Shown here one piece after another: positions 1-36,751 of a stretch of DNA of 36,751 nucleotides. The DNA lies in the IMG/VR virus record IMGVR_UViG_3300045988_077255. The stretch is one strand, 5' to 3'. The first letter of the stretch is position 1. Every line of letters starts with the position of its first letter. The DNA is from a virus. Under the pieces are notes generated by a model. It made no database searches. It was not told where the DNA came from and worked only from the letters and a program-made list of their open reading frames with translations. A program made the position numbers and the translations under genes.

Positions 1-24
1 ACTATGCAACACGAAATGCAACAC

Positions 25-54
25 AAAATAAAAAAAGTACCGTAAATACAGTAC
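25..54 (-). terminator. Rho-independent terminator of the target tRNA (copy within repeat 1)
   Basis: Minus strand reads GUACUGU-AUUU-ACGGUAC (7-bp stem, one G.U) followed by UUUUUUUAUUUU, directly 3' of the tRNA end. Confidence 0.6.
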
Positions 55-62
55 TTTTAAAG

Positions 63-85
63 CAGGGGATGAGGGATTCGAACCC
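63..85 (-). tRNA. tRNA 3' fragment (T-loop, T-stem 3' strand, acceptor 3' strand), duplicated copy
   Basis: Minus strand reads GGG-TTCGAAT-CCCTC-ATCCCCT-G. This gives a canonical T-loop, a 7-nt acceptor strand implying A1:U72, and discriminator G73. Confidence 0.55.
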
Positions 86-2408: not shown

Positions 2409-4004
2409 TTACGGATAAATTGCAATCAAATGTCCATTCGAATCAATCTGAAACGTCGGGCTATCACCTTTATCGCCTTTGTCGCCTTTTGCTCCGGTTG
2501 CACCGGTGGCACCTTTTGCACCTGTATCTCCCTTATCTCCTTTAGCTCCGGTTGCACCGGTGGCGCCTTTTGCTGCTATCTGTAACCAATAAGTCGTATT
2601 CGTTGGAATGATACTAGAAGAAGCAGTGTGGCTCTTGATACAGGCATAGGTATTGCCATTGTATGTAACGATATCAATATAAGATGTATCATTCACATAA
2701 GCAGTTCCGGATGCCCATGCATTTTTCAGTCTCATACTGACACCGGTCGAACCTTTTGCTCCGGTATCTCCCTTTGCTCCAGTTGCGCCAGTGTTTCCGG
2801 TTGCTCCTTTTGCTGCAATTTGAGTCCAGTATGTAGTATTTGTCGGAACGATGTTGGAAGAAGCAGTATGACCTTTTGCACAAGCATAAGTACTGCCGTT
2901 GTAAGTCACAATATCAATATACGTCCCATCATTGACATAAGCAGTTCCAGATGCCCATGCGCCTTTCAAACGCATACTCACACCTTTTGCACCTTGTGCC
3001 CCCTGCGGTCCCTGCGCTCCAATCGGTCCTTGCGCACCTGTCTCGCCTTTTGCACCTGTCGCTCCAGTAGCTCCTGTTGCCCCCTTGATATTGCCGGTCT
3101 TCGACCATGCACCAGAGGCTCTTTTATATACATCAAAATTCGATGTATTTAAGAAGAAATCTCCGTCTTTTCCCTGTGATGCAGATGGTGCAGCTGTTCC
3201 GGTCAACCATGTTGCCCCATCTGCTCCTTTTGCACCAGTCGCACCAGTTGCACCCTTGTCACCTTTTGCTCCTGTCGCACCGGTATCGCCTTTTGCTCCT
3301 TTCTCACCTTTTGGTCCTTGTAAGTCAACAACCATCTGAAAACCGGAGATATGTACTTTGTATCCTGCCGGAAGTCCTGCTTTTAACTTAATTCCTTTTC
3401 CATCTGAGTTTTCAGTAAATGTCGTTCCATCCTGTCGTACACCATCAACATATACTTCCAGAGCATTTCTATTCAACGGAAACTGATAATCTGTCCAAGA
3501 AAAAGAAGTTTGCCCCTCTGTAGAGGTAAAAATCTTCTCAAAGCGAATATAGCTTTCTGTACTTCCTGCCGGCCCCTGAACACCTCGTTCACCTTTTGGT
3601 CCCTGTGGTCCAGTCGCACCGGTATCACCTTTGTCACCTTTTACACCCTGAATACCCTGTGGTCCCTGAATACCTTGGTCTCCTTTATCGCCTTTCGGTC
3701 CTTGAATGCCTCGTGCACCAGATAAGTCAACGATATAAGTATAGGCACTTGAATTTTTACAATATAATTTACCGGTATCCACATCATCTACACTCCCGGT
3801 ATCAATCATGACAAAACTTCCTACGCTTACTCCATCTGTAGAATATCCAGCATTCATGGCTGATACACTTTTGTAAATTTTAGCGATTTTAAACGGCTCT
3901 CCCGGGTCACCTTTTAGCCCCTGCTTTCCTTGAGGTCCCTGTGGTCCCTGTGCTCCTTGCGGTCCCTGCGGACCGATTACTTTACCTAAATCAACTGTAC
4001 TCAT
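2409..4004 (-). CDS. Collagen-like tail fibre / receptor-binding protein with two tandem CBM5/12 (ChtBD3)-like modules
   Basis: 531 aa with several G-X-Y tracts. A duplicated ~70-aa unit reads AWASGTAYVND..YIDIVTYNG.TYAC.K.HTASS.I.PTNTTYW.QI, matching the chitin-binding type 3 pattern. Confidence 0.85.
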   Translation of the reverse strand: MSTVDLGKVIGPQGPQGAQGPQGPQGKQGLKGDPGEPFKIAKIYKSVSAMNAGYSTDGVSVGSFVMIDTGSVDDVDTGKLYCKNSSAYTYIVDLSGARGIQGPKGDKGDQGIQGPQGIQGVKGDKGDTGATGPQGPKGERGVQGPAGSTESYIRFEKIFTSTEGQTSFSWTDYQFPLNRNALEVYVDGVRQDGTTFTENSDGKGIKLKAGLPAGYKVHISGFQMVVDLQGPKGEKGAKGDTGATGAKGDKGATGATGAKGADGATWLTGTAAPSASQGKDGDFFLNTSNFDVYKRASGAWSKTGNIKGATGATGATGAKGETGAQGPIGAQGPQGAQGAKGVSMRLKGAWASGTAYVNDGTYIDIVTYNGSTYACAKGHTASSNIVPTNTTYWTQIAAKGATGNTGATGAKGDTGAKGSTGVSMRLKNAWASGTAYVNDTSYIDIVTYNGNTYACIKSHTASSSIIPTNTTYWLQIAAKGATGATGAKGDKGDTGAKGATGATGAKGDKGDKGDSPTFQIDSNGHLIAIYP

Positions 4005-13962: not shown

Positions 13963-14357
13963 TCCTCATCCACTCCCATGTATAAAATACCACTTGACAT
14001 TAGATAAGTACTTGCAATCTGATATAAACGACTCTCAAACTCTTCCTCTGTCTGTTCTGTCTGATAGCTGACGGAATATCCATCGTTGTTTTCCGATACA
14101 ATATTTCCTCTTACCTTTCTCTTTTGCATTGCCTCAGCCATTTCACAGATTGCATACTTTGCATTTTGTTCCCAGTCTTTTTCTGACCAGTCACATGCAA
14201 TTCTTCCAAAGCTGAAATGTTCCAGACGTTTTTCTGCTTTCAATTCCAAAGAAAGCCAGGCACTTTCTGGCACCTGACTTCCTCCAAACCTTTCAATATA
14301 AAAACTATAATCTACTTTCATAATCTCATCAACTAGCGGTTTTTGCTGTATGTACAT
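13959..14357 (-). CDS. Head-tail connector / DNA packaging protein
   Basis: 132 aa. The start may instead be ATG 14321 (MKVDYSF), just past the capsid stop. Confidence 0.5.
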   Translation of the reverse strand: MYIQQKPLVDEIMKVDYSFYIERFGGSQVPESAWLSLELKAEKRLEHFSFGRIACDWSEKDWEQNAKYAICEMAEAMQKRKVRGNIVSENNDGYSVSYQTEQTEEEFESRLYQIASTYLMSSGILYMGVDEE

Positions 14358-15192
14358 AAATACCGTCTACTTTGTTGTCATAAGTTTCTGCAATACCGAC
14401 AGTTCTATAGTTAAACTGCCATGCATCTGCGTTCATGTTCTGTTCCGGTGTGAAAATTTTGGAAACAGTGTGCTTCTGATACTGGATAACTGCCTGTTTG
14501 TCAATCACAATAAAGTTCATCGCAAGTGCACCGGTATCTTTTGTAAATCCACCTGCTCCGGAAGCAGTCAGTTTTACTTTATTGAAGAACCTTCCCGATG
14601 GTACTTTTACGATTCCTGCAAATCCCTCCAGTGCTTTTTTGGAGGCAGTTGTATCTAAGTCATCAATCATTCCATAAAGTGCCGGATTAATGAACAGGTA
14701 ACAAGTTGCAAGATTTGCCTCTGCATTTTCAATGTGATTTCTTGCTTCACGAAGTGCTGCAAGTCCTGCCTTTCCATCTGCAATATCTGCACTTACTGTT
14801 GCTACATTCTTTGTCTGTGCATAAGCAGACAGACGATAAGCATCCAGCTCCGGGACACCCTGTGTTCTAAGAAATTCACTGGATAATTTACCAAATGCGA
14901 TACTCGCTGTATCGATATTGTCCATTGCATCTACAACAAACTTTCTACCACGGTCATAAGTACATTTCTTAGTTTCATAGTCTAATGTAATATCTCCTGC
15001 CGCATATCCGTTTGTTTTGGAATAATCTGCAAGACCCTGCATAGTCATTTTCGGAATCAAAATTTCGTTTGCATTTGCACCCTCTTTTACCAAGTTATTT
15101 GCTCCATCCAGCACAGCTGTTAAAGAGGATAACTTGTAGACCTCGTCCAAAAGGGTTGAGTACTGTTTTCTTAATTCAATTGCGTTTGGCAT
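14329..15192 (-). CDS. Major capsid protein
   Basis: 287 aa, directly after the scaffold gene. Confidence 0.8.
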   Translation of the reverse strand: MPNAIELRKQYSTLLDEVYKLSSLTAVLDGANNLVKEGANANEILIPKMTMQGLADYSKTNGYAAGDITLDYETKKCTYDRGRKFVVDAMDNIDTASIAFGKLSSEFLRTQGVPELDAYRLSAYAQTKNVATVSADIADGKAGLAALREARNHIENAEANLATCYLFINPALYGMIDDLDTTASKKALEGFAGIVKVPSGRFFNKVKLTASGAGGFTKDTGALAMNFIVIDKQAVIQYQKHTVSKIFTPEQNMNADAWQFNYRTVGIAETYDNKVDGIYVHTAKTAS

Positions 15193-15203
15193 TCAACTTC
15201 TCC

Positions 15204-15764
15204 TTATTTGTTTTCCGGAAGTCCCATAGCCGCACGAAGTGCAGACACTTCATCTGCTCCGCCGCTGCCACCATTTCCGGTTGAACCTACTGGATTCTTA
15301 AACGGTTCATCTGAGCCGAAGAGATAAGCATCAGACTCTTTTACCGCTCCAATCGCAGCCTCAATGTCGGCAGACTGGTTTTTCGATGCTTTGAGTGTTT
15401 CCATGTCAAGCATTGCCATAACTGCCTTTTCATTTCTACCTCCGGCTTTCTTAATTGCGGCACTTAATTCTCCGGAAAACTGACGTTCTGCTTCTTTCTG
15501 GGCATATTCTGCATCTTTTGCCTGCAAATCATCCTGAAGCTTTGCAATTTGACTCTGCAAGTCTTTTACGTCCACTTCGTCAAATTCTTTCAGCTTTTCA
15601 TTTACAGTATCAAGAGAAGATTTATACTCATCTCTCTTTGTAACTGCATTATCGTACTCTGCTTTGGTACGATAATTTTCTTTCCATGCTTTTTCAAAGT
15701 CTGCTTTTTTCTCTGCCGGAAGTTCAAGTCCAAATTCTTTAAGAATCTCATAGATATTTTTCAT
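15204..15764 (-). CDS. Scaffolding protein (Phage_GP20-like)
   Basis: 186 aa, highly charged coiled coil (KAEYDNAVTKRDEYKSSLDTVNEKLKEF), upstream of the capsid gene. Confidence 0.8.
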   Translation of the reverse strand: MKNIYEILKEFGLELPAEKKADFEKAWKENYRTKAEYDNAVTKRDEYKSSLDTVNEKLKEFDEVDVKDLQSQIAKLQDDLQAKDAEYAQKEAERQFSGELSAAIKKAGGRNEKAVMAMLDMETLKASKNQSADIEAAIGAVKESDAYLFGSDEPFKNPVGSTGNGGSGGADEVSALRAAMGLPENK

Positions 15765-15850
15765 GCTACATTCCTCCTGAAATCATTTATTGACCGCTCT
15801 TTCAGCGGTATGGGATATATCCGGTTCTTTAATGCCTGCCGAAAAAAGGC

Positions 15851-15878
15851 ATAAAAATAAGACGCCATCAATGCGTCT
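15851..15878 (-). terminator. Rho-independent terminator closing the moron cassette
   Basis: Minus strand reads AGACGC-AUUGAUG-GCGUCU followed by UAUUUUUAU. Confidence 0.6.
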
Positions 15879-15891
15879 TTGTTAATCTTTT

Positions 15892-16104
15892 TTATAAGTC
15901 ACTTCCATATCTGTTTCTGCTACAAATGTTGTTGTCCCCTTGTACGTTCTTACCGAATATCTTTAAGTTTTTCAGCGGAACTTTGACACTATCTTTACAA
16001 ACTATTGGATTGCCAGATATCGTTTCAAAACTATACTTTTTCATTTTATATAGCTTTTCTGGTTTCATTCCTATAAAATTTGTATCATCTACCATTTCAG
16101 GCAT
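15892..16104 (-). CDS. Short ORF, possible truncated paralogue of 16383..16937
   Basis: 70 aa. It shares the N-terminal motif FIG.K.E.LY.M.K with the 184-aa ORF and ends just before the terminator. Confidence 0.4.
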   Translation of the reverse strand: MPEMVDDTNFIGMKPEKLYKMKKYSFETISGNPIVCKDSVKVPLKNLKIFGKNVQGDNNICSRNRYGSDL

Positions 16105-16379
16105 TGTACTTCGACACCTCTTTCATCTGCCTCTTCTGGAATAATTGTCATAATTCCTTTCATCGTCGGAAGATAATTCGTATCTGCTCTGGCAGTAATT
16201 ACTTGTGCACATTCTGCCGGAATCAATAAACAATCATTTTTATTTGATGTCTCCTCAAGTGCCACATAAATATCGCCTTGAGTAAAATTCTTAACCAAGT
16301 ATTCAATTCCAGCAACATCAAATTCCAATTTTATCGGAGTATTCGCACTTGTTGCCTGTCTTTTAAAAATACACTTCAT
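16089..16379 (-). CDS. Hypothetical moron protein
   Basis: 96 aa, closely spaced after 16383..16937 (3-nt gap) and overlapping the start of 15892..16104 by 16 nt. Confidence 0.5.
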   Translation of the reverse strand: MKCIFKRQATSANTPIKLEFDVAGIEYLVKNFTQGDIYVALEETSNKNDCLLIPAECAQVITARADTNYLPTMKGIMTIIPEEADERGVEVQCLKW

Positions 16380-16382
16380 TTT

Positions 16383-16937
16383 TTACTCCTTATAAGGTTC
16401 CCATTTTTTTCTTGTTTTTCCCACTGACAACATAACACCTTTAAAAGTCGCCTCGTATTTTCCTGCTAATACACTTCCGGCTGTATTTTCTGTTACAAAA
16501 AGTCTAACTTTAACATTCGTAGCCTCTTTCGGAATAGATAAAGTAATTGCTTTTTGTTTTTCTGTAGATATCAACGTCTTATAACGATACTTGCCATTTT
16601 GCATATATGCGGCTCCAACGACTGCACTCTCATTTGGTACATTGCTTTTGTAGTCATCATATTGAAGAGTTACTGTTTTTCCAATAACTCTTTTCAATGG
16701 TATTGAATATACTACATTTACAAATTTTTTACTAGAAGCTGTTGCATTTGCCCCTATTTCTGCTTTAAGTGTAATGGAATATCCCTGTTTATCTACTTTT
16801 TTTTCTTTAATACCAAGTTCTGTTTCGGAACTTTTATATGCATTAAATAACTGTTTGCTTTTCTTTGACATCTGATATAACGTTTCTTTTTTAGTCCCAA
16901 TAAACCTCATATCACCGCTTATCATATCTCTTTGCAC
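16383..16937 (-). CDS. Hypothetical moron protein, beta-rich (possible carbohydrate-binding/decoration module)
   Basis: 184 aa with a GTG start behind GAGGAG. Inserted between the MuF and scaffold genes. Confidence 0.6.
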   Translation of the reverse strand: MQRDMISGDMRFIGTKKETLYQMSKKSKQLFNAYKSSETELGIKEKKVDKQGYSITLKAEIGANATASSKKFVNVVYSIPLKRVIGKTVTLQYDDYKSNVPNESAVVGAAYMQNGKYRYKTLISTEKQKAITLSIPKEATNVKVRLFVTENTAGSVLAGKYEATFKGVMLSVGKTRKKWEPYKE

Positions 16938-17017
16938 TAAAACACTCCTCTCATGGAGTCAGTGCTTACAAGGTTAAGTTTTACCCCCCCCCGCTCAAAA
17001 CTATTCTTTCTATTCAT
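16937..17017 (-). CDS. 26-codon leader ORF containing a G9 tract, with its stop overlapping the downstream GTG start
   Basis: AAAGGAG-N6-ATG, reading MNRKNSFERGGVKLNLVSTDSMRGVF. Its TAG shares its G with the GTG start of 16383..16937 (sequence TAGTG). Confidence 0.35.
   Translation of the reverse strand: MNRKNSFERGGVKLNLVSTDSMRGVF
16984..16992. repeat. Homopolymeric C9 (G9 on the coding strand)
   Basis: Nine consecutive C in an otherwise AT-rich genome, located inside the leader ORF. Confidence 0.95.
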
Positions 17018-17030
17018 CAAATTCTCCTTT

Positions 17031-17073
17031 AAAAATAGTATAAAAATACCACCAGTCGCTCAACTGATGGTAT
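17031..17073 (-). terminator. Rho-independent terminator after the MuF / zinc-ribbon genes
   Basis: Minus strand reads AUACCAUCAGU-UGAGCG-ACUGGUGGUAU (11 bp, one G.U) followed by UUUUAUACUAUUUUU. Confidence 0.7.
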
Positions 17074-17083
17074 TAATCAATAT

Positions 17084-17233
17084 TCAATCTTTTTTGCAAC
17101 TATCGCAATGAAAACTTTTTGTTGTTTTAAAATCTCCAACTGCAATCATTACACCTTTTTTACAACATGGACAGATAACTTTTTCGCCATTTCTTAATTT
17201 TTCCATAAATTCATTAAATTCATAAGGATTCAT
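17084..17233 (-). CDS. Small zinc-ribbon protein (49 aa), not in the ORF track
   Basis: GGAGGTG-N5-ATG, reading MNPYEFNEFMEKLRNGEKVICPCCKKGVMIAVGDFKTTKSFHCDSCKKD. Paralogue of 17277..17444. Confidence 0.55.
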   Translation of the reverse strand: MNPYEFNEFMEKLRNGEKVICPCCKKGVMIAVGDFKTTKSFHCDSCKKD

Positions 17234-17276
17234 CTTGTCACCTCCATGGTAACTCTGGATATAATTTCTTTACTTT

Positions 17277-17444
17277 TTAATCAACAATTAGCTGACTGCC
17301 ACACTTTTCACATTGAAAAGTATTTGTTTTTTTACAATCTCCTATTGCTATCATCTTTCCTTTGCACTTTTTACATAATACACATTTCCCCTCACGCAAA
17401 AGTTTCAAGCGTTCATGGGTTGGCATAAGCAAAGTATCATTCAT
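17277..17444 (-). CDS. Small zinc-ribbon protein (55 aa), not in the ORF track
   Basis: GGGAG-N7-ATG, 4 nt after the MuF stop. Reads MNDTLLMPTHERLKLLREGKCVLCKKCKGKMIAIGDCKKTNTFQCEKCGSQLIVD. Confidence 0.6.
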   Translation of the reverse strand: MNDTLLMPTHERLKLLREGKCVLCKKCKGKMIAIGDCKKTNTFQCEKCGSQLIVD

Positions 17445-17448
17445 AAAA

Positions 17449-19074
17449 TCACTCCCATTTCAAATATGGATACATGTCATCTATATATTTCATTGTATCC
17501 TTAATCGTCTCCTTTGTCAATTTCTCACCTCTATGTCTGCATTCATTCAAAAAACATTCTAATTCTTGGTTTTTAGTATTTGGCTTATTGATTTTAGCAT
17601 GTGTTGCTTCGTGTATCACAGTAAGAGCCGCATCTTTCACTTTCTTTACATTATCAGCGTATACATTAATTGTCCCTGATTCAAATGTCCCTGCTCGTCC
17701 TGGTTCAACATCCACCCCATAATATATATTTACAGGAATATCATTATCTTGTATATATGCTAATAATTCTCGTCCTATTTCAGATTTATTCATTTCTTTC
17801 ATAATGTTATGAGGCTTTATAATATCCCTCCCCTTTTGCGGACTTCTTCCATCAAAAGTAGTAAAATTCTTTTCATTATCTTTATAACGTCTTGGTGCAA
17901 TCTGAACAGTTCTTCTACCAGCCATCCTCCCCAGCCCATCCATATACACTCGTTCCATCTGCTCCGGAAGTTTCATTTTCTTTGAAAAGTCTTTATACTG
18001 ACTTAGTGTATTAAGATATCTCGCCTGAGCTGCTATCACGGTATCCAAGTCTGCATTTCCCTGTTTCAGGTTCTTAATATTTGCTCTCTGTGCCCGCATG
18101 GTCGTTTCCATCTGCCGTTGTGCCTGTGATGCCTGGTATGCATTGTAGCTTTTGCCTTTGTACTCATGCTCTTCCTGCTCTTTTGCTTCCAGCTCTTCTA
18201 ACTGCTCGTCTGTATAAGTCCTTGCAGAAAAACCATCCACAAAAGCATAGTAACTATGCTTACAATTCCATCCACATAAACCTCTTCCCTCTCCAAGTTC
18301 GCACACTCTTACAAGGTCATCGTAGCTGTAGACTTTACCGCCCCACCAGTGTTCTGGTCGGTGTCCACCATGCCATGTCACTTCGTATTTATCCGTTTTC
18401 AGGTCTTTTGCAACCATTTCGTTTATTTTACTACTCAACTGTGAAACACCTGTCATAATGGCTCGTCTTGCCGCCACAGGTGCACGGTTTTTCCATCCGG
18501 ATGCATAGTCCACTGTTTGCAGTCCAGAAGCTGTCATTTCTTTTACGACTCGCCTCAAGACAGTATTATAATCAAATGAACCTGTTACAATATCCATACA
18601 GGCAGAATCTAAATACTTCTGGTAATACGTTGCCAGTGGTGTGAATACTTTCTTACCACGCATTTGCACGGTAAATCCCATTGACTGCGTAAGATTCTTT
18701 ATCTCTCCCTGTGTCTGCTTTGAAATTGCATCTGCCCATTTTCTAATTGTCTCATTCTCTTCGAGCGGAATAAAATTACCGTTTATCTGCTCATAAGCAT
18801 CTTTATTTCTGACATATTCCCAGTCACAGACTTTATCATACAAAGCCCAAATTTCCGGATAGGAAGCATTTAAAAGATTTTTCAATTCCTTTTCTATGAA
18901 CTCTGTACTATTTCCAAGCAGCAGGAGTTTATTTATCTGATAATCTGCCGTGCTGGTAATTTCACCAGTTTTTTTGATTCTCCTTACAATATCCGCATAA
19001 ATTCGGTCTTGCAAATCATAAAAAAGTTTTTCCGTCCGAAGTGGCAGTGTTCCTTTTTCGTCTGGTGTCATCAT
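17449..19074 (-). CDS. Minor head protein (SPP1 gp7 / Mu F family) with C-terminal HExxH metallopeptidase-like extension
   Basis: 541 aa. MuF-type motifs: VTWHGGHRPEHWWGGKVY and GLCGWNCKHSYYAF. The C-terminal ~130 aa contain VIHEATHAK. Confidence 0.85.
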   Translation of the reverse strand: MMTPDEKGTLPLRTEKLFYDLQDRIYADIVRRIKKTGEITSTADYQINKLLLLGNSTEFIEKELKNLLNASYPEIWALYDKVCDWEYVRNKDAYEQINGNFIPLEENETIRKWADAISKQTQGEIKNLTQSMGFTVQMRGKKVFTPLATYYQKYLDSACMDIVTGSFDYNTVLRRVVKEMTASGLQTVDYASGWKNRAPVAARRAIMTGVSQLSSKINEMVAKDLKTDKYEVTWHGGHRPEHWWGGKVYSYDDLVRVCELGEGRGLCGWNCKHSYYAFVDGFSARTYTDEQLEELEAKEQEEHEYKGKSYNAYQASQAQRQMETTMRAQRANIKNLKQGNADLDTVIAAQARYLNTLSQYKDFSKKMKLPEQMERVYMDGLGRMAGRRTVQIAPRRYKDNEKNFTTFDGRSPQKGRDIIKPHNIMKEMNKSEIGRELLAYIQDNDIPVNIYYGVDVEPGRAGTFESGTINVYADNVKKVKDAALTVIHEATHAKINKPNTKNQELECFLNECRHRGEKLTKETIKDTMKYIDDMYPYLKWE

Positions 19075-19080
19075 AAATGC

Positions 19081-20439
19081 TTACTCCTCAATCGGGTCAG
19101 GATCTACACTTTCATCAATAATCTTCTTTGCGGCTTCTTCCTCTGTTTCACCGTACCACTTTGCACGATACTCTACTAAGGTCATCGCACCCATGTTTAC
19201 ATCCTGTCTATCCTGCTGCCGTTCTGTCTCTTCACTAGTTAAAATGGAATCACTGAATTCACAGAAGAACTCATAACCGGAAGTGTACATAGAATTATAA
19301 AATGCCAGTCCTGCCGCAAAATCTTCCAGACAGTCCCGAAGTTTTCCCTGTATTGCTTTTACACGATTATACTTTCTCGCCTTTGATGACTTGATTTCTT
19401 CCGCTGTCTTTTCAACATTCTGTACGTTTGAGAGGTCACCATAGCTTAAGCCTACAATAAACTCAATTTCTCGCTTATATTCTTCTAAGCCACGTTTAAA
19501 CGCTTCGTCACGCATTTCCGGAGAGTACTCACGGAACAGTTCTTTGTCTTTTCCATCCTCAAGATTTAAGCCACGATACAATCGTTTGCTTAGTCGTGGC
19601 AGATTAAAACGTCCACCTTTTTGCTTTAGTGCTCTCTCATCTACGTGAATGGCACGTTCTCCGGAATTGTATTCCCAGTCAAGTCTTGCCGCTTGAATAT
19701 CCGCTTTCATAATCCGCTCTTTCGCAGATTCATATACCGATACACCACAATGACTACCATCTACATTATTACGAAGCGGATTCCTGTAATATCCAAAATC
19801 CATTTGCTCCATTCCTGGATAACTGACCGGACCAGCTTCTATGTTCTGCCACTCTCCCACTTCTTCAAGAGAACATTCCTGTCCAATGTCAGCCTGTGTC
19901 TGCGAATGATAACACCTGTTTGAAATCGTAAGCACTCCATTTGCAATGGTATGCCGTTCTACTCTCGTATAATAATCAATCTCACCGATACGTTTTACCG
20001 TAAGAAACGCAACATCAGTTGGTCTGCCATTGTCTCCAAACTGAATCGGTATGAACTTATCCGCAGTAATAAACTCTGCCAATCCTCCCGGCAATGGTTT
20101 CAAACAAAAAGAGCCCAGTGCAAGACCATCTTGCAAGTGCTCATTTAAAAGTGTAAGCTGTTTTTTATATATCTTGTCCAATGCCGGTACAGAAATAGAT
20201 GTTTCCATCTCTGCTAATACGGTATCTGCAAATTCACGACAGATACCTTGCTCTATCTTAAGAGACTGCACATCGCTACTAGTCCAGTCTGCCGCTCCGT
20301 CGAGCATTAACTTCCATTCGTTGATGGCATCAATCATTCCTTGCGATAATGCCACATCCGTACCAAGTATACTTTTTAATTGCGTATAGCCAAACATTCT
20401 CGCTATCCTCCTCAGAAAATTCTTAATTCCATCAAACAT
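19081..20439 (-). CDS. Portal protein (SPP1 gp6-like)
   Basis: 452 aa, between TerL and the MuF gene, with an acidic C-terminus. Confidence 0.85.
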   Translation of the reverse strand: MFDGIKNFLRRIARMFGYTQLKSILGTDVALSQGMIDAINEWKLMLDGAADWTSSDVQSLKIEQGICREFADTVLAEMETSISVPALDKIYKKQLTLLNEHLQDGLALGSFCLKPLPGGLAEFITADKFIPIQFGDNGRPTDVAFLTVKRIGEIDYYTRVERHTIANGVLTISNRCYHSQTQADIGQECSLEEVGEWQNIEAGPVSYPGMEQMDFGYYRNPLRNNVDGSHCGVSVYESAKERIMKADIQAARLDWEYNSGERAIHVDERALKQKGGRFNLPRLSKRLYRGLNLEDGKDKELFREYSPEMRDEAFKRGLEEYKREIEFIVGLSYGDLSNVQNVEKTAEEIKSSKARKYNRVKAIQGKLRDCLEDFAAGLAFYNSMYTSGYEFFCEFSDSILTSEETERQQDRQDVNMGAMTLVEYRAKWYGETEEEAAKKIIDESVDPDPIEE

Positions 20440-22241: not shown

Positions 22242-22338
22242 ATATGGATAAAATGTAAAGAAAAGAGAAACATGTAAGTTTAGCACTTACCAGCTCTTGT
22301 CCATTACCCGAACAAGTGGGCACACCGTCACGTGTGAG

Positions 22339-22412
22339 CAACAGCGGAAGGAATCGAACCCCCGACCTCTTGCAAGGCATTTGCAAGCGCTCTACCACTG
22401 AGCTACGCTTTG
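22339..22412 (-). tRNA. Aberrant tRNA-like gene (Ala-tRNA-like body, non-canonical anticodon arm)
   Basis: Arms read CAAAGCG-TA-GCTC-AGTGGTA-GAGC-G-CTTGC-AAATGCCTT-GCAAG-AGGTC-GGGGG-TTCGATT-CCTTC-CGCTGTT-G. The D and T arms are canonical. The anticodon loop is 9 nt (or a 7-bp stem with a 5-nt loop). The acceptor stem pairs at only 5 of 7 positions. Confidence 0.5.
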
Positions 22413-28146: not shown

Positions 28147-28240
28147 TGTTTTTCCTCTATGTGTCTGTTAAAATACAGAAGTGTAAAGTTTTTTTTCTGC
28201 GTCCCTTTTGAAGTTGCTGCTTCTAAGGGACTTTTTTTAG

Positions 28241-28621
28241 TTAGTCAGTGAGAATTTGCAGTTTTGCAAGTTCCACAGCTTTTCCGCGAACCACAGCTTT
28301 TCCGCGAACCACAGCATTTCCGTAAACCTCAGCATTTCCGCGAACCTCAGCATTTCCGCGAACCTCAGCATTTTCGCGAACCTCAGCATTTTCGCTAACC
28401 ACAGCATTTCCGCGAACCACAGCATTTCCGTAAACCTTGGCATTACTGTAAACCCAAGCATCACCTTTGTGTGAAAGATTTTCTTCTTTCTCAATCCAGC
28501 CGCCAAGTTCCCCTGCTACCACACTTGCAAAACTAGTGATAGCTTGAATTCTGTGCAGTGTTACATCTTTAAAAAGAAACGATACTGTTTTTGTTTCTCC
28601 TGTAAATTCGTATTTTTTCAT
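28241..28621 (-). CDS. Hexapeptide-repeat (left-handed beta-helix-like) protein
   Basis: Track ORF is 28241..28732. ATG at 28621 (MKKYEFTGETK) lies behind AAAGGGGAA. About 10 consecutive NA.V.G hexads. Confidence 0.7.
   Translation of the reverse strand: MKKYEFTGETKTVSFLFKDVTLHRIQAITSFASVVAGELGGWIEKEENLSHKGDAWVYSNAKVYGNAVVRGNAVVSENAEVRENAEVRGNAEVRGNAEVYGNAVVRGKAVVRGKAVELAKLQILTD
28278..28457. repeat. 18-bp tandem repeat x ~10 (coding; hexapeptide pairs)
   Basis: GCATTTCCGCGAACCTCA-type units with few substitutions. All three frames are open here because of the periodicity. Confidence 0.9.
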
Positions 28622-34049: not shown

Positions 34050-34124
34050 ACTTAATAAATAGTACAAAAGATAAAATAAGGGAATCAATCTACATTATAA
34101 AAAACAAGTAAAGGAGAATTGCCA

Positions 34125-35309
34125 ATGAAAAGAAAAATTGTAACAATGCTTCTACTGGCTACATTATCAGTCAGTGTCGTAGGATGCGGAACCAGTTCCT
34201 CTTCCGGAAGCACAAAAGAAGACACTAAAACTTCCCAAAGTGAAGAAAAAGAGGAAGAGGCAAAAGAACCAACTGACTTAACAGGTGTATGGGCATCTGA
34301 AAATAAAGATGGTTCTTATCAAGAAGCAACAATAACCGACGATTCTATCGAAATCAACTGGATTTCCGATGATGGGGCAACAAAATCCATTTATTGGTCT
34401 GGAACATATACTGCACCAACCGAGTTTGTTGAAGAATATTCATGGACTTCTGATAGGAATAAAGAAAAAACAGATTCCGCATTGCTTGCATCGACTGATG
34501 ATACCAAAGAATTTACATACAAAAATGGGAAAATCAGTTATGAAGTCTCAGCAATGGGTACAACTTCTACTGTTGAATTGACTCAAACTTCTAAAGATGC
34601 TCCAGAAACAGCAACTGAATCAGAAACCGGAACAAGTGATACAACTACTTCTGATTCTTCATCCTCTGACACTGCAAATAATACTTCCAAAGAACAAGCT
34701 TCTTTTGAAGTTACTTATAAGAATGTTTCATTTTACCGAGATAGCATCTCTGATTTAATTGGACAGTCTATTGTTGAAATTGAAAATACTGGAAGTAGTA
34801 ATTTGTATTTAGATTTCAGTTCCTATGAATTAACTGCAGAAGATGGAACAATCATTCATACAACCAGTGGAAGTTTTACACCTGCTCCTCAAGTAATTGA
34901 ACCAGGTGAAAAAGGTTATTATTACGAAGAACAACTTATGGATGACCAAACTCCAACCGAAGGAATTACAATCACTCCTCACATTAATGCTTCCACTGCG
35001 AAAGTAGACAATGTTCGCTTAGAAGTAAGTAATACAGAGGTTTACGATAAGGATATGGGTAGTGTTGACTTACACGGAAAAGTAAAAAACACAACCGGAG
35101 CAGCTCAGACAGATATTTGTGTAACTGCGGTCTTATTCAATGAAAATGCTGAACCGATTGGTCAGCTTTCGACTGTTCTTGCAAACACTTTACAGCCTGA
35201 TGAAGAAATTGGATTTGAATTAGAACCGGTATTTCTTCCGGAAGATATCACAAGCGCATCCATTGCAGATTATAAAGTATTCGCTTATACAAATCAGTAT
35301 CAATACTAA
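34125..35309 (+). CDS. Prophage lipoprotein (candidate superinfection-exclusion factor)
   Basis: AAGGAG-N8-ATG at 34125. Signal peptide with lipobox LSVSVVG-C, an S/T/E-rich linker, and a beta-rich DUF4352-like C-terminal half (SIVEIENTGSSNLYLDFSSYELTAEDG). Confidence 0.8.
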   Translation: MKRKIVTMLLLATLSVSVVGCGTSSSSGSTKEDTKTSQSEEKEEEAKEPTDLTGVWASENKDGSYQEATITDDSIEINWISDDGATKSIYWSGTYTAPTEFVEEYSWTSDRNKEKTDSALLASTDDTKEFTYKNGKISYEVSAMGTTSTVELTQTSKDAPETATESETGTSDTTTSDSSSSDTANNTSKEQASFEVTYKNVSFYRDSISDLIGQSIVEIENTGSSNLYLDFSSYELTAEDGTIIHTTSGSFTPAPQVIEPGEKGYYYEEQLMDDQTPTEGITITPHINASTAKVDNVRLEVSNTEVYDKDMGSVDLHGKVKNTTGAAQTDICVTAVLFNENAEPIGQLSTVLANTLQPDEEIGFELEPVFLPEDITSASIADYKVFAYTNQYQY

Positions 35310-35356: not shown

Positions 35357-35490
35357 CATACACAAGTAAATATCCAGAGATGATACATCTCCTATTAACA
35401 AAATTATTGTATCATCTCCGGAGCAGTCACGCAAGCAGAACATCTGTTCCAAGCTGGCTGTTATTTTTATACCCAAAAAGGAGTGATAAC

Positions 35491-36621
35491 ATGGCAACAG
35501 CACGAAAACTTGTATCAGGCTCTTGGCGATGTCAGGTATACAGTCACACGGAAGAAATTATTCAACCAGATGGCTCCGTTAAACAGAAACGTTTTTACAA
35601 ATCGTTTACCTGTGACGTACCTGGTCCAAAAGGCAAGCGAATGGCAGAGCGGATGGCTGCCGAATGGGCTTCTGAAAAGGAGCATAAGAAAAATATCTTA
35701 AACTGCACGATTGGTGAAGCGATTGAGATGTATATTAACTCAAAAGATGGTATCTTAAGCCCCTCTACAATAGCCGGATACAAAAGGATGCAAAAAAATG
35801 GATTTAAACATATCATGAATACTTATCTTACAAGTGTTGATAAGGAATACCTGCAAGAGGCAGTAAACCGTGAAGCCAAGCGAAAGAGCCTCAAAAGACC
35901 AACAGAAACTATTTCACCAAAGACCGTAAAAAATGAATATGGCTTAATCAGTGCAGCTTTAAATGCTTTCTGCCAAGGAATTGATACCAATGTAAAACTT
36001 CCTACCGTTCCGGTATTAATTAAAGATTTACAGACTCCTGATGCAATCTTTGCTGTATTCGAGGGCACAGACATCGAACTGCCAGTGTTACTTGCTATGT
36101 GGCTTAGTTTCTCAGTGTCAGAAATTCGTGGTCTTACAAAATCAAAATCTATCTCTAAGGACGGAAATTATATATCAATCACGGAAACAGTTGTAAAAGT
36201 GGATAATGACGATATTAGAAAGAAAGAAGCAAAAAATAATACCAGAATCCGCAGACACAGGATTCCGGAATATATAAAAAGCTTAATTGAAAAAGTACCT
36301 GGCGATGTGCTTGTACCATATTCCTATAACACCCTCTATAAGCGTTTCCAGTACTTATTAGAAGAGTCCGATATGCCACACATGACATTTCACGACCTCA
36401 GACACATAAATGCCTCTGTCATGGCACAGCTTCGTGTACCGGATAAATATGCCCAGGAACGTGGTGGCTGGAAAACAGACCAGATAATGAAAAAAGTATA
36501 CACTCATACCTTTTCAGATGAACGAATTGCAGTGGATAATGTTATGGATAATTTCTTTGAAAACATTGTTCAGAATCTTTCGAATTGTATGAATTGTTTA
36601 GACAAGCCCTCTCATGAATAA
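35491..36621 (+). CDS. int: Tyrosine integrase
   Basis: Track ORF is 35380..36621. ATG at 35491 lies behind AAAGGAGTGATAAC. Catalytic residues: R in SEIRGL, HDLRH, and Y in KKVYTHT. Confidence 0.9.
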   Translation: MATARKLVSGSWRCQVYSHTEEIIQPDGSVKQKRFYKSFTCDVPGPKGKRMAERMAAEWASEKEHKKNILNCTIGEAIEMYINSKDGILSPSTIAGYKRMQKNGFKHIMNTYLTSVDKEYLQEAVNREAKRKSLKRPTETISPKTVKNEYGLISAALNAFCQGIDTNVKLPTVPVLIKDLQTPDAIFAVFEGTDIELPVLLAMWLSFSVSEIRGLTKSKSISKDGNYISITETVVKVDNDDIRKKEAKNNTRIRRHRIPEYIKSLIEKVPGDVLVPYSYNTLYKRFQYLLEESDMPHMTFHDLRHINASVMAQLRVPDKYAQERGGWKTDQIMKKVYTHTFSDERIAVDNVMDNFFENIVQNLSNCMNCLDKPSHE

Positions 36622-36690
36622 ATCTCTTCATGAGAGGAAAAACACCCATTTTTAGCTATTTTAAAAACTATGCAACACGAAATGCAACAC

Positions 36691-36720
36691 AAAATAAAAA
36701 AAGTACCGTAAATACAGTAC
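36691..36720 (-). terminator. Rho-independent terminator of the target tRNA (copy within repeat 2)
   Basis: Same hairpin plus U-run as 25..54. Confidence 0.6.
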
Positions 36721-36728
36721 TTTTAAAG

Positions 36729-36751
36729 CAGGGGATGAGGGATTCGAACCC
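36729..36751 (-). tRNA. 3' end of a minus-strand tRNA gene continuing beyond the window (Trp-like: A1:U72, G73)
   Basis: GGG-TTCGAAT-CCCTC-ATCCCCT-G, truncated by the window edge. Confidence 0.55.

Follow-up and report, generated by a model that had tools for sequence, protein, structure and literature searches.

A run of guanines lying in a short upstream open reading frame (ORF) of a gut phage is found at every length from six to ten among related loci, and we propose that slippage within it may switch the expression of the gene that follows, which encodes a putative virion protein of 184 amino acids (aa). The genome in question is the IMG/VR virus record IMGVR_UViG_3300045988_077255, a stretch of 36,751 nucleotides (nt) that we call the window and that is a complete temperate siphovirus genome, the host being of the Lachnospiraceae type among gut Firmicutes. 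The run sits at the 5' end of a block of three ORFs between the genes for the MuF minor capsid protein and the scaffold, and this block is an accessory cassette inserted in the head-gene region of the phage. Its features, with Shine-Dalgarno sequences abbreviated as SD, are as follows.

17045-17074, minus strand: upstream intrinsic terminator (13-bp stem and T-run), the 5' edge of the cassette and the end of the module made up of the MuF C-terminal domain and small ORFs.
16937..17030, minus strand: leader, with SD AAAGGAG at 17030-17024, ATG at 17017, 26 codons and TAG at 16939-16937.
16984-16992, minus strand: poly-G run (G9), inside the leader ORF.
16934..16965, minus strand: predicted two-tier hairpin, GCACUG-ACUCC-(AUGAGA)-GGAGU-GUUU-UAGUGC.
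16383-16937, minus strand: 184-aa gene with a GTG start, the first gene of the cassette.
16089-16379, minus strand: 96-aa gene, starting 3 nt after the stop of the 184-aa gene and overlapping the third gene by 16 nt.
15892-16104, minus strand: 70-aa ORF, overlapping the end of the 96-aa ORF; a remnant of a 417-aa gene.
15851..15879, minus strand: downstream intrinsic terminator (hairpin at 15859-15879, 7-bp stem followed by ATTTTTAT).

These positions agree with what the initial annotation had reported, namely three ORFs between MuF and scaffold with a terminator on each side and, ahead of them, a 26-codon leader with a strong SD whose stop overlaps the GTG start of the 184-aa gene. The leader TAG and the GTG (16937-16935) share one G, and the resulting TAGTG is kept in all loci that we compared. 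The G9 run, which had been singled out as the only long homopolymer, is indeed the longest homopolymer of the window and its sole G/C run of at least 7 in 36.7 kb, where shuffles give a chance expectation of 0.04 such runs. The arithmetic of slippage also comes out as it had been worked out before: a G8 run makes the leader read CGG GGG GGG TAA and a G10 run ...GGT AAA ACT TAA, which moves leader termination upstream by 47 or 40 nt, close to the 50 nt or so given earlier. Stop codons thus follow the run closely in both alternative frames and the third frame ends exactly at TAGTG, so that only G6 and G9 carry the leader frame through to the start of the 184-aa gene, while the other lengths end 40-47 nt short of it. 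In a second version of the leader with a different 5' half (L005 and L039), the frame of the ATG relative to the run is the same. The leader peptide itself is not conserved, with 4 non-synonymous changes against 1 synonymous change downstream of the run, and it is therefore the act of translating, rather than the product, that would be relevant. A search of the leader against Rfam returned no known RNA family.

Two other ways in which a homopolymer might act were considered and rejected. Slippage could fuse the leader to the 184-aa ORF, a possibility dismissed because in that frame the run is separated from the GTG by TAA and TGA stops. Phase variation of a promoter spacer was set aside on the grounds that a promoter scan and inspection found no -35/-10 pair bracketing the run.

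The length of the run varies in nature. Loci were gathered from the contigs of 184-aa homologues and by scanning viral, metagenome and genome collections for a conserved 22-mer, which yielded 18 further loci with a leader, or 19 with the window included; a protein-based scan of viral contigs returned only two loci, both in the set already. Run lengths are distributed among the 19 loci in the following way.

G6: L018 (1 locus).
G7: L019 (1 locus).
G8: L001, L004, L005, L006, L007, L009, L021 and L023 (8 loci).
G9: the window, L002, L003, L008, L022, L039, L040 and L038 (8 loci; the run of L038 is at least 9, since its contig begins 2 nt before the run).
G10: L020 (1 locus).

The initial annotation had pointed to related genomes as a place to look for length heterogeneity, and with G6 to G10 present in 19 loci the tract is plainly not invariant across homologues. 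In-frame lengths (G6 or G9) account for nine of the 19, which makes the out-of-frame lengths slightly commoner. The roughly 130 nt flanking the run are nearly invariant across loci. Contigs L006 and L008 align over 4,728 bp with 0 mismatches and a single gap, the difference between G8 and G9, and L019 and L022 do so over 9,590 bp, again with 0 mismatches and a single gap, here G7 against G9; the window and L001 are separated by 37 substitutions and one gap across 8.5 kb. As a control, an A7 run near the 3' end of the 184-aa gene is constant in 10 of 10 aligned loci. The poly-G run is the sole G/C run of at least 7 at each locus, and it is unbroken in all 19, even where identity of the 184-aa protein falls to 69-73% and the leader has another 5' half.

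Homopolymers are prone to sequencing and assembly errors, and such errors might in principle produce these length differences: all of the data are metagenome or Logan assemblies, and contig L038 breaks exactly at the run. We nevertheless consider this explanation very improbable. The lengths number five, two contigs that agree in all else over 9.6 kb differ here by 2 nt, A7 and A8 runs in the same contigs are stable within lineages, and the differences arise from many independent projects and assemblers. From this comparison of genomes, the poly-G run is very probably hypermutable in the true sense, and the reading of the locus as phase-variable, which would follow such a pattern, has strong comparative support.

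How a change in run length might be felt by the 184-aa gene is suggested by the predicted structure at its start site. The two-tier hairpin pairs the SD of the gene (GGAG, 16948-16945), the leader stop and the GUG start, with an energy of -15.5 kcal/mol (z = -2.1), and at run lengths from G6 to G10 the SD is predicted to be paired with a probability of at least 0.99 and the GUG with one of 0.80-1.0. A direct effect of run length on mRNA structure, as suggested earlier, was rejected, the SD-masking hairpin being predicted equally at G6-G10. Because it is predicted at every run length, any effect of that length must act through translation and not through the folding of naked RNA. Relatives show four substitutions in the 5' arm, each of which keeps the pairing by way of G-U, and no compensatory double change is found.

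The account toward which we lean, if only slightly, is that a slipped-strand poly-G switch in a translationally coupled leader sets the expression of the 184-aa gene. Slippage during replication would alter the length of the run within the 26-codon upstream ORF. With G9 or G6, ribosomes would translate the leader as far as its UAG, melt the hairpin over the SD and GUG on the way, and restart at the GUG by UAGUG coupling, giving an ON state. With G8, G7 or G10, they would instead stop at a UAA 47 or 40 nt upstream and the hairpin would stay closed, leaving the 184-aa gene poorly translated, in an OFF or low state. It is from the TAGTG overlap and the predicted masking hairpin that we infer that the leader frame would control translation and that G6 and G9 would be the ON lengths.

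Several points weigh against this account, and some of them would suit a simpler one in which the run is hypermutable without any regulatory role, the 184-aa gene starting from its own SD and the upstream ORF being incidental. A good SD (GGAG) stands 7 nt ahead of the GTG of the 184-aa gene, which might initiate from it leader-free if the hairpin breathes. All three frames occur in nature, and the fact that about half of the loci are out of frame fits a switch but also an unselected leader frame; the leader peptide, moreover, is not conserved. The hairpin is modest at -15.5 kcal/mol and its z-score is only about -2; the changes seen in relatives are one-sided G-U changes with a chance probability of about 0.28, and for that reason we do not count them as proof of the hairpin. 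The run lengths were read from assembled contigs, not raw reads, and the promoter scan found no convincing sigma-70 promoter upstream of the leader (17074-17017, minus strand), where a weak TTGAGC-15 nt-TATACT was noticed by eye only. A run with no role is nonetheless unlikely in our view. A neutral G9 in a genome of 39% guanine plus cytosine (GC) should get broken by point mutation, yet it is intact at every one of the 19 loci; stops in both off-frames come right after the run while the in-frame stop overlaps the GTG exactly; the ATG frame is the same in the second leader version; and the prediction has the SD and GUG paired (P 0.8-1.0).

The gene that would be switched has itself the look of one for a variable binding protein. 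The 184-aa family comprises 12 clusters with 69-99% identity, and searches of the 184-, 96- and 70-aa ORFs against Pfam and PHROG gave nothing significant. A profile of the 184-aa family does align to the N-domain of a family of longer, fibre-like proteins, named here after its 417-aa member (hhalign probability 96%, E = 4e-9), and the two share an N-terminal FIGxKxExLYxMxK peptide and a C-terminal WEPY motif. The structure model of the 184-aa protein is all-beta, with a poor predicted local distance difference test score (pLDDT) of 53.5, and the best PDB fold matches of this low-confidence model are carbohydrate-binding modules (CBMs), namely CBM16, CBM22, CBM4, CBM6, CBM27 and CBM61, at E ~2e-4 and TM 0.4-0.5. 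By these results the 184-aa protein is paralogous to the 417-family N-domain and is predicted to be a beta-sandwich resembling CBMs. A jelly-roll or CBM fold had been guessed at from the start; the profile link to the fibre family and the viral structure matches described below fit that guess, as do the CBM matches, with the reservation that these come from the pLDDT 53.5 model.

Residues 1-32 and 167-184 of the protein are nearly invariant and the middle is hypervariable. Ratios of non-synonymous to synonymous polymorphism (pN/pS), which are pairwise values and not mutually independent, reach 1.1-4.5 for the 184-aa gene among close relatives and 0.5-0.8 against the deepest, while the flanking genes give 0.04-0.36. 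Variable sites fall at codon positions 1, 2 and 3 in the numbers 35, 42 and 19, a depletion of third-position change. This pattern fits diversifying selection on a binding surface that would be held in place by conserved anchoring ends. A diversity-generating retroelement was considered as the source of the variation and rejected: the window holds neither a template repeat (no repeat of the gene is found in it) nor a reverse transcriptase, and the substitutions (A>G 26, G>A 21, C>T 18, T>C 16) are not specific to adenine.

The 184-aa gene is also dispensable, given that it is frameshifted in two lineages, by a change from A6 to A7 in L006-L011 and by an added G in L002. The first of these is consistent across six contigs from at least five samples, in a lineage that keeps an intact 417-aa gene. 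The frameshifts lie, for example, around position 4000 of L006 and around 4440 of L002; in L021 the gene is shortened in frame by 6 codons. Such losses count among the points against the proposed account, as does the poor quality of the structure model of the protein, and part of its fast evolution could be relaxed constraint.

Behind the 184-aa gene lies a 96-aa gene with a strong SD of its own, AAGGAG. Its family is stand-alone and consists of 84 clusters, nearly all of 85-105 aa, and it evolves under purifying selection with a pN/pS of 0.07-0.43. No relative of the 96-aa protein was found in Pfam, PHROG or PDB, a PDB sequence search giving only spurious designed-repeat matches or none. A homologue lies directly upstream of a 417-family gene in L016 and L017 (between terminase and portal) and in L032 (between MuF and scaffold), and is absent from L012-L015.

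The third ORF had been counted with the other two, but it is no gene of its own and is instead a pseudogene remnant: about 55 N-terminal codons of a 417-aa gene are joined out of frame to the last 93 nt of that gene by a 1,031-bp internal deletion. The same deletion is present in L001-L003, L005 and L020, and an intact 417-aa gene occupies the position in L006-L010. Other alleles are a 433-aa version with 54% identity (L018, and 3'-truncated at contig ends in L019 and L022), a 426-aa version (L038) and a 37-aa stump (L004).

The close packing of the cassette raises the possibility that a switch would hit all of it, with untranslated mRNA leading to decay or polarity and the 184-aa, 96-aa and fibre genes going off together, or alternatively that slippage by RNA polymerase on the run would give mixed transcripts. 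Only 3 nt separate the 184-aa stop from the 96-aa start, a 16-nt overlap follows, and one terminator stands after the three genes. We rate this idea as quite unlikely, however, in view of the strong SD of the 96-aa gene and of an untranslated gap in the OFF frames whose 40-47 nt are few for the loading of Rho. Slippage in transcription, for its part, is best documented on A/T runs.

The 417-aa family comprises 82 clusters, some members of which have collagen repeats or a BppU_N domain, and its two domains are joined by a highly conserved linker, WEPYTGG-PSPSP-YPQEI. The model of the 417-aa protein has a pLDDT of 87, and its structure matches, at E from 7e-32 to 1e-8, are gut-virome proteins named collagen-like, head fibre, distal tail and tail fibre, and in the same range a virion structure protein of Clostridium phage CPS2. 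PHROG matches of the family are 'tail fiber protein' (E = 1e-6) and 'virion structural protein'. Compared with PDB folds, the 417-aa model had no match at E <= 1e-3 and weak partial CBM matches only, and a PDB sequence search with the family profile gave only spurious designed-repeat matches or none. At least four unrelated backbones carry genes of this family within their head or packaging block, and not in tail modules, as in these examples.

L012, 6001-7332: portal, 417-family gene, scaffold.
L014, 6001-8073: portal, 417-family gene, MuF.
L016, 5711-7284: terminase, 417-family gene, portal.
L032, 3046-4892: MuF, 417-family gene, scaffold, the same arrangement as in the phage of the window.

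Current annotation does not account for this placement in head-gene blocks, where the 96-aa partner is often present as well. A head- or neck-associated role as fibre or decoration is our best guess for the family, because its genes sit among head genes and because the phage of the window has a complete separate tail module with a fibre. We likewise infer that the 184-aa and fibre proteins would be glycan binders on the virion surface, probably associated with head or neck, and that the 96-aa protein would serve as their adaptor or assembly partner. The location in the virion is deduced solely from where the genes lie and how the structural matches are named, which has to be counted with the points against. 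A further step, which we offer only tentatively and think may well prove wrong, is that the poly-G run toggles the display on virions of a hypervariable CBM-like protein that shares a docking peptide with the longer fibre of the cassette and possibly competes with it. If so, a single prophage would release particles with mixed surface properties, a form of bet-hedging that would serve adherence to glycans of the host or of mucus, or evasion of recognition, in phages of human-gut Lachnospiraceae.

That the block is accessory follows from its absence in the nearest relative, L024, a prophage of 'Firmicutes bacterium OM04-13BH' whose portal, MuF N-domain and capsid are 98%, 96% and 97% identical. 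What L024 has at the cassette site is limited to another MuF C-terminal domain, an ORF of 118 aa and a terminator, and in alignments with L024, L032, L004 and L006 the homology of the backbone picks up directly after the stem of the downstream terminator. Among 14 related prophages from Lachnospiraceae-type genomes (Blautia, Dorea, Mediterraneibacter and [Ruminococcus] torques), the cassette is missing from L024 and from 12 of the 13 others, and the one exception, L032, carries the pair of 96-aa and 417-family genes. The upstream terminator is kept, with loop changes, in L001-L009, and L005 and L039 have another hairpin at that place; the terminator scan, which covered 5.5 kb, gave 9 terminator-like sites against 3.1 expected. 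The GC content is 0.30-0.36 over about 15600-18000 and 0.40-0.46 in the flanking head genes, and this low-GC zone extends beyond the cassette over the MuF C-terminal domain and the Zn-ribbon ORFs. The initial annotation had called the block a moron cassette; its accessory nature, lower GC and own terminator accord with that term, but the scan found no promoter of its own, and so a moron in the strict sense is unproven. The accompanying statement that such phages normally have nothing between MuF and scaffold was mistaken, for in related phages this gap is a swapping hot-spot with variable MuF C-terminal domains and small ORFs.

For the window and the loci L003, L004, L005 and L018, synonymous divergence is 0.01-0.07 for the 184- and 96-aa genes, and in the same genome pairs it is 0.24-0.31 for the scaffold and 0.16-0.26 for the MuF N-domain. 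Since the divergence of the cassette is several-fold below that of the adjacent genes, it suggests that the cassette may have spread horizontally, and recently, across diverged phage backbones. When 185,579 reference genomes were scanned for exact 22-mer matches, no copy turned up, and hence no cultured lysogen with the cassette was identified.

The late genes around the cassette are on the minus strand in the order portal, MuF, two Zn-ribbon ORFs, cassette, scaffold and major capsid protein.

19081-20439, minus strand: portal.
17449-19074, minus strand: MuF, or minor capsid protein 2 (Pfam PF06152, E = 2e-89, spanning residues 2-363 only).
17277-17444, minus strand: Zn-ribbon ORF 1, a paralogue of ORF 2.
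17084-17233, minus strand: Zn-ribbon ORF 2.
15204-15764, minus strand: scaffold (PF06810, E = 4e-35).
14329-15192, minus strand: major capsid protein.

The MuF protein continues for about 180 aa past its Pfam domain (17452-17985, minus strand), in a stretch of low GC with a HEATH (HExxH-like) motif and a weak match to the putative metallopeptidase family DUF6782 (E = 0.004). Relatives differ in their MuF C-termini (505, 573 and 615 aa; fusion to Ntox50 in L016), and different small ORFs accompany each of these. MuF polymorphic toxins have a swappable C-terminal extension followed by small downstream ORFs (PMC5576092), and in sequence the MuF extension and the two Zn-ribbon ORFs look like such a toxin with candidate immunity genes. 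The match of layout is to the MuF gene beside the cassette, and the cassette is separate from that system. It could be argued that the three cassette ORFs are themselves orphan toxin or immunity modules, lying as they do directly downstream of a MuF gene with just this layout. That argument strikes us as extremely improbable. The cassette sits behind a terminator and pairs freely with differing MuF C-terminal modules (541-, 505- and 573-aa MuF), remaining unchanged while these change; the family of its third gene matches fibre-like virion proteins and is also found where the neighbour is a portal or terminase gene and MuF toxins are absent; the 184-aa protein is predicted to resemble CBMs; and the Pfam and PHROG searches gave no toxin or immunity family match.

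Beyond the head region, the window encodes an integrase, replication initiator, terminase, tape-measure protein, distal tail protein (Dit), collagen-like tail fibre and endolysin, with a full tail module that is separate from the cassette and has this collagen-like fibre as its own. The tail-fibre gene (2409-4004, minus strand) contains extensive collagen-like repeats (9-nt periodic G-x-y) and an internal 240-nt duplication. An exact 85-nt direct repeat is present at both ends of the window (1-85 and 36667-36751) and terminates in GGGATTCGAACCC, which resembles a tRNA 3' end; it is either an overlap from circular assembly or the core of a prophage attachment site, and the integrase gene (35380-36621) adjoins it. 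Next to the integrase, a 396-aa ORF (34119-35309, plus strand) has no PHROG match at E <= 1e-5. In the replication region, 28237-28488 holds a tandem array of about ten 18-nt units (CCACAGCATTTCCGCGAA-like), which may be an iteron or origin array or a repeat within a gene, and a tRNA-Ala (TGC) lies at 22338-22412 (minus strand), directly upstream of the ORF in the position of the small terminase. In a DNA search of the annotated phage collection the only match was 104 nt of the scaffold, in Blautia phage Montmirail.

Switching genes on and off by repeat slippage is a hallmark of bacterial surface genes, and in phages it has been documented essentially once, in Fletchervirus. Should the proposed switch be real, it would provide a second phage example and imply that phages of the human gut also use contingency loci; it would differ in mechanism, the run being part of a coupled leader ORF, and would belong to temperate phages whose hosts are abundant gut Firmicutes. 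The G6-G10 polymorphism is visible in public metagenomes, so that the switch would come with a simple sequence signature to look for and would offer a testable route to heterogeneous virion surfaces, for instance in their adherence to mucus or glycans. The cassette itself is a previously undescribed mobile unit of two or three fibre or CBM genes that recurs in head-gene blocks of unrelated phages.

Parts of this system have counterparts elsewhere. In the translation attenuation of ermC and cat, and in the coupled genes of RNA phage MS2, translation of a leading ORF controls a masked start. There, as is predicted here, the SD and start of the next gene are buried in a hairpin that comes after a short upstream ORF and is opened when a ribosome passes; the input in those cases is an antibiotic-stalled ribosome or upstream translation, and the one proposed here is a heritable change in DNA length. 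Morons are insertions between head or tail genes in HK97- and lambda-type phages, and like them the cassette is an extra block of lower GC, absent from close relatives, with its own terminator and between conserved late genes. Unlike morons, which are fitness factors expressed in the lysogen, it has no detected promoter and its content looks virion-associated. Accessory capsid fibres and decoration proteins, such as the phi29 head fibre gp8.5, T4 Hoc and the collagen-like SPP1 gp12, are likewise encoded by dispensable genes among head genes. In keeping with this, collagen repeats occur in relatives of the third gene, and among the structural matches is a 'head fiber protein'; others, however, bear the names tail fibre or distal tail protein, and no sequence homology to any of these accessory proteins was shown. 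Mtd of Bordetella phage BPP-1, the target of a diversity-generating retroelement, resembles the 184-aa protein in being a ligand-binding phage protein (putatively so here) with a hypervariable region and an excess of amino-acid change; it differs in that the window is without a template repeat or reverse transcriptase and that the substitutions here are mostly transitions at all four bases.

The closest parallels concern the repeat itself. Simple-sequence-repeat contingency loci are known from Neisseria, Haemophilus, Campylobacter and Bordetella (PMC1891110, PMC5084427). In these bacteria, as at this locus, homopolymer slippage shifts the frame, closely related genomes differ only in run length, and the gene affected, putatively so here, has a role at the surface or in interaction and is subject to diversifying selection; the run there lies in the ORF of the gene itself or in a promoter spacer, whereas here it is in a separate leader ORF and would act by translational coupling. 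Among phages, Fletchervirus of Campylobacter has hypermutable poly-G tracts in genes for receptor-binding proteins (Sorensen et al. 2021, as cited in PMC10877375), and a review from 2025 treats it as an exceptional case of phage-encoded phase variation (PMC11959909). Fletchervirus shares with the phage of the window a poly-G run of variable length in a phage genome that produces mixed expression states of a host-interaction or virion protein, an outcome that is proposed here. Its runs lie within the coding sequence of tail receptor-binding genes, the phages are lytic myoviruses, and the host itself uses poly-G switching. In the present case the run lies in a coupled 26-codon upstream ORF of a temperate siphovirus of gut Firmicutes, at the front of a head-block cassette, and the protein whose expression it may govern is a predicted CBM-like paralogue of a fibre N-domain.

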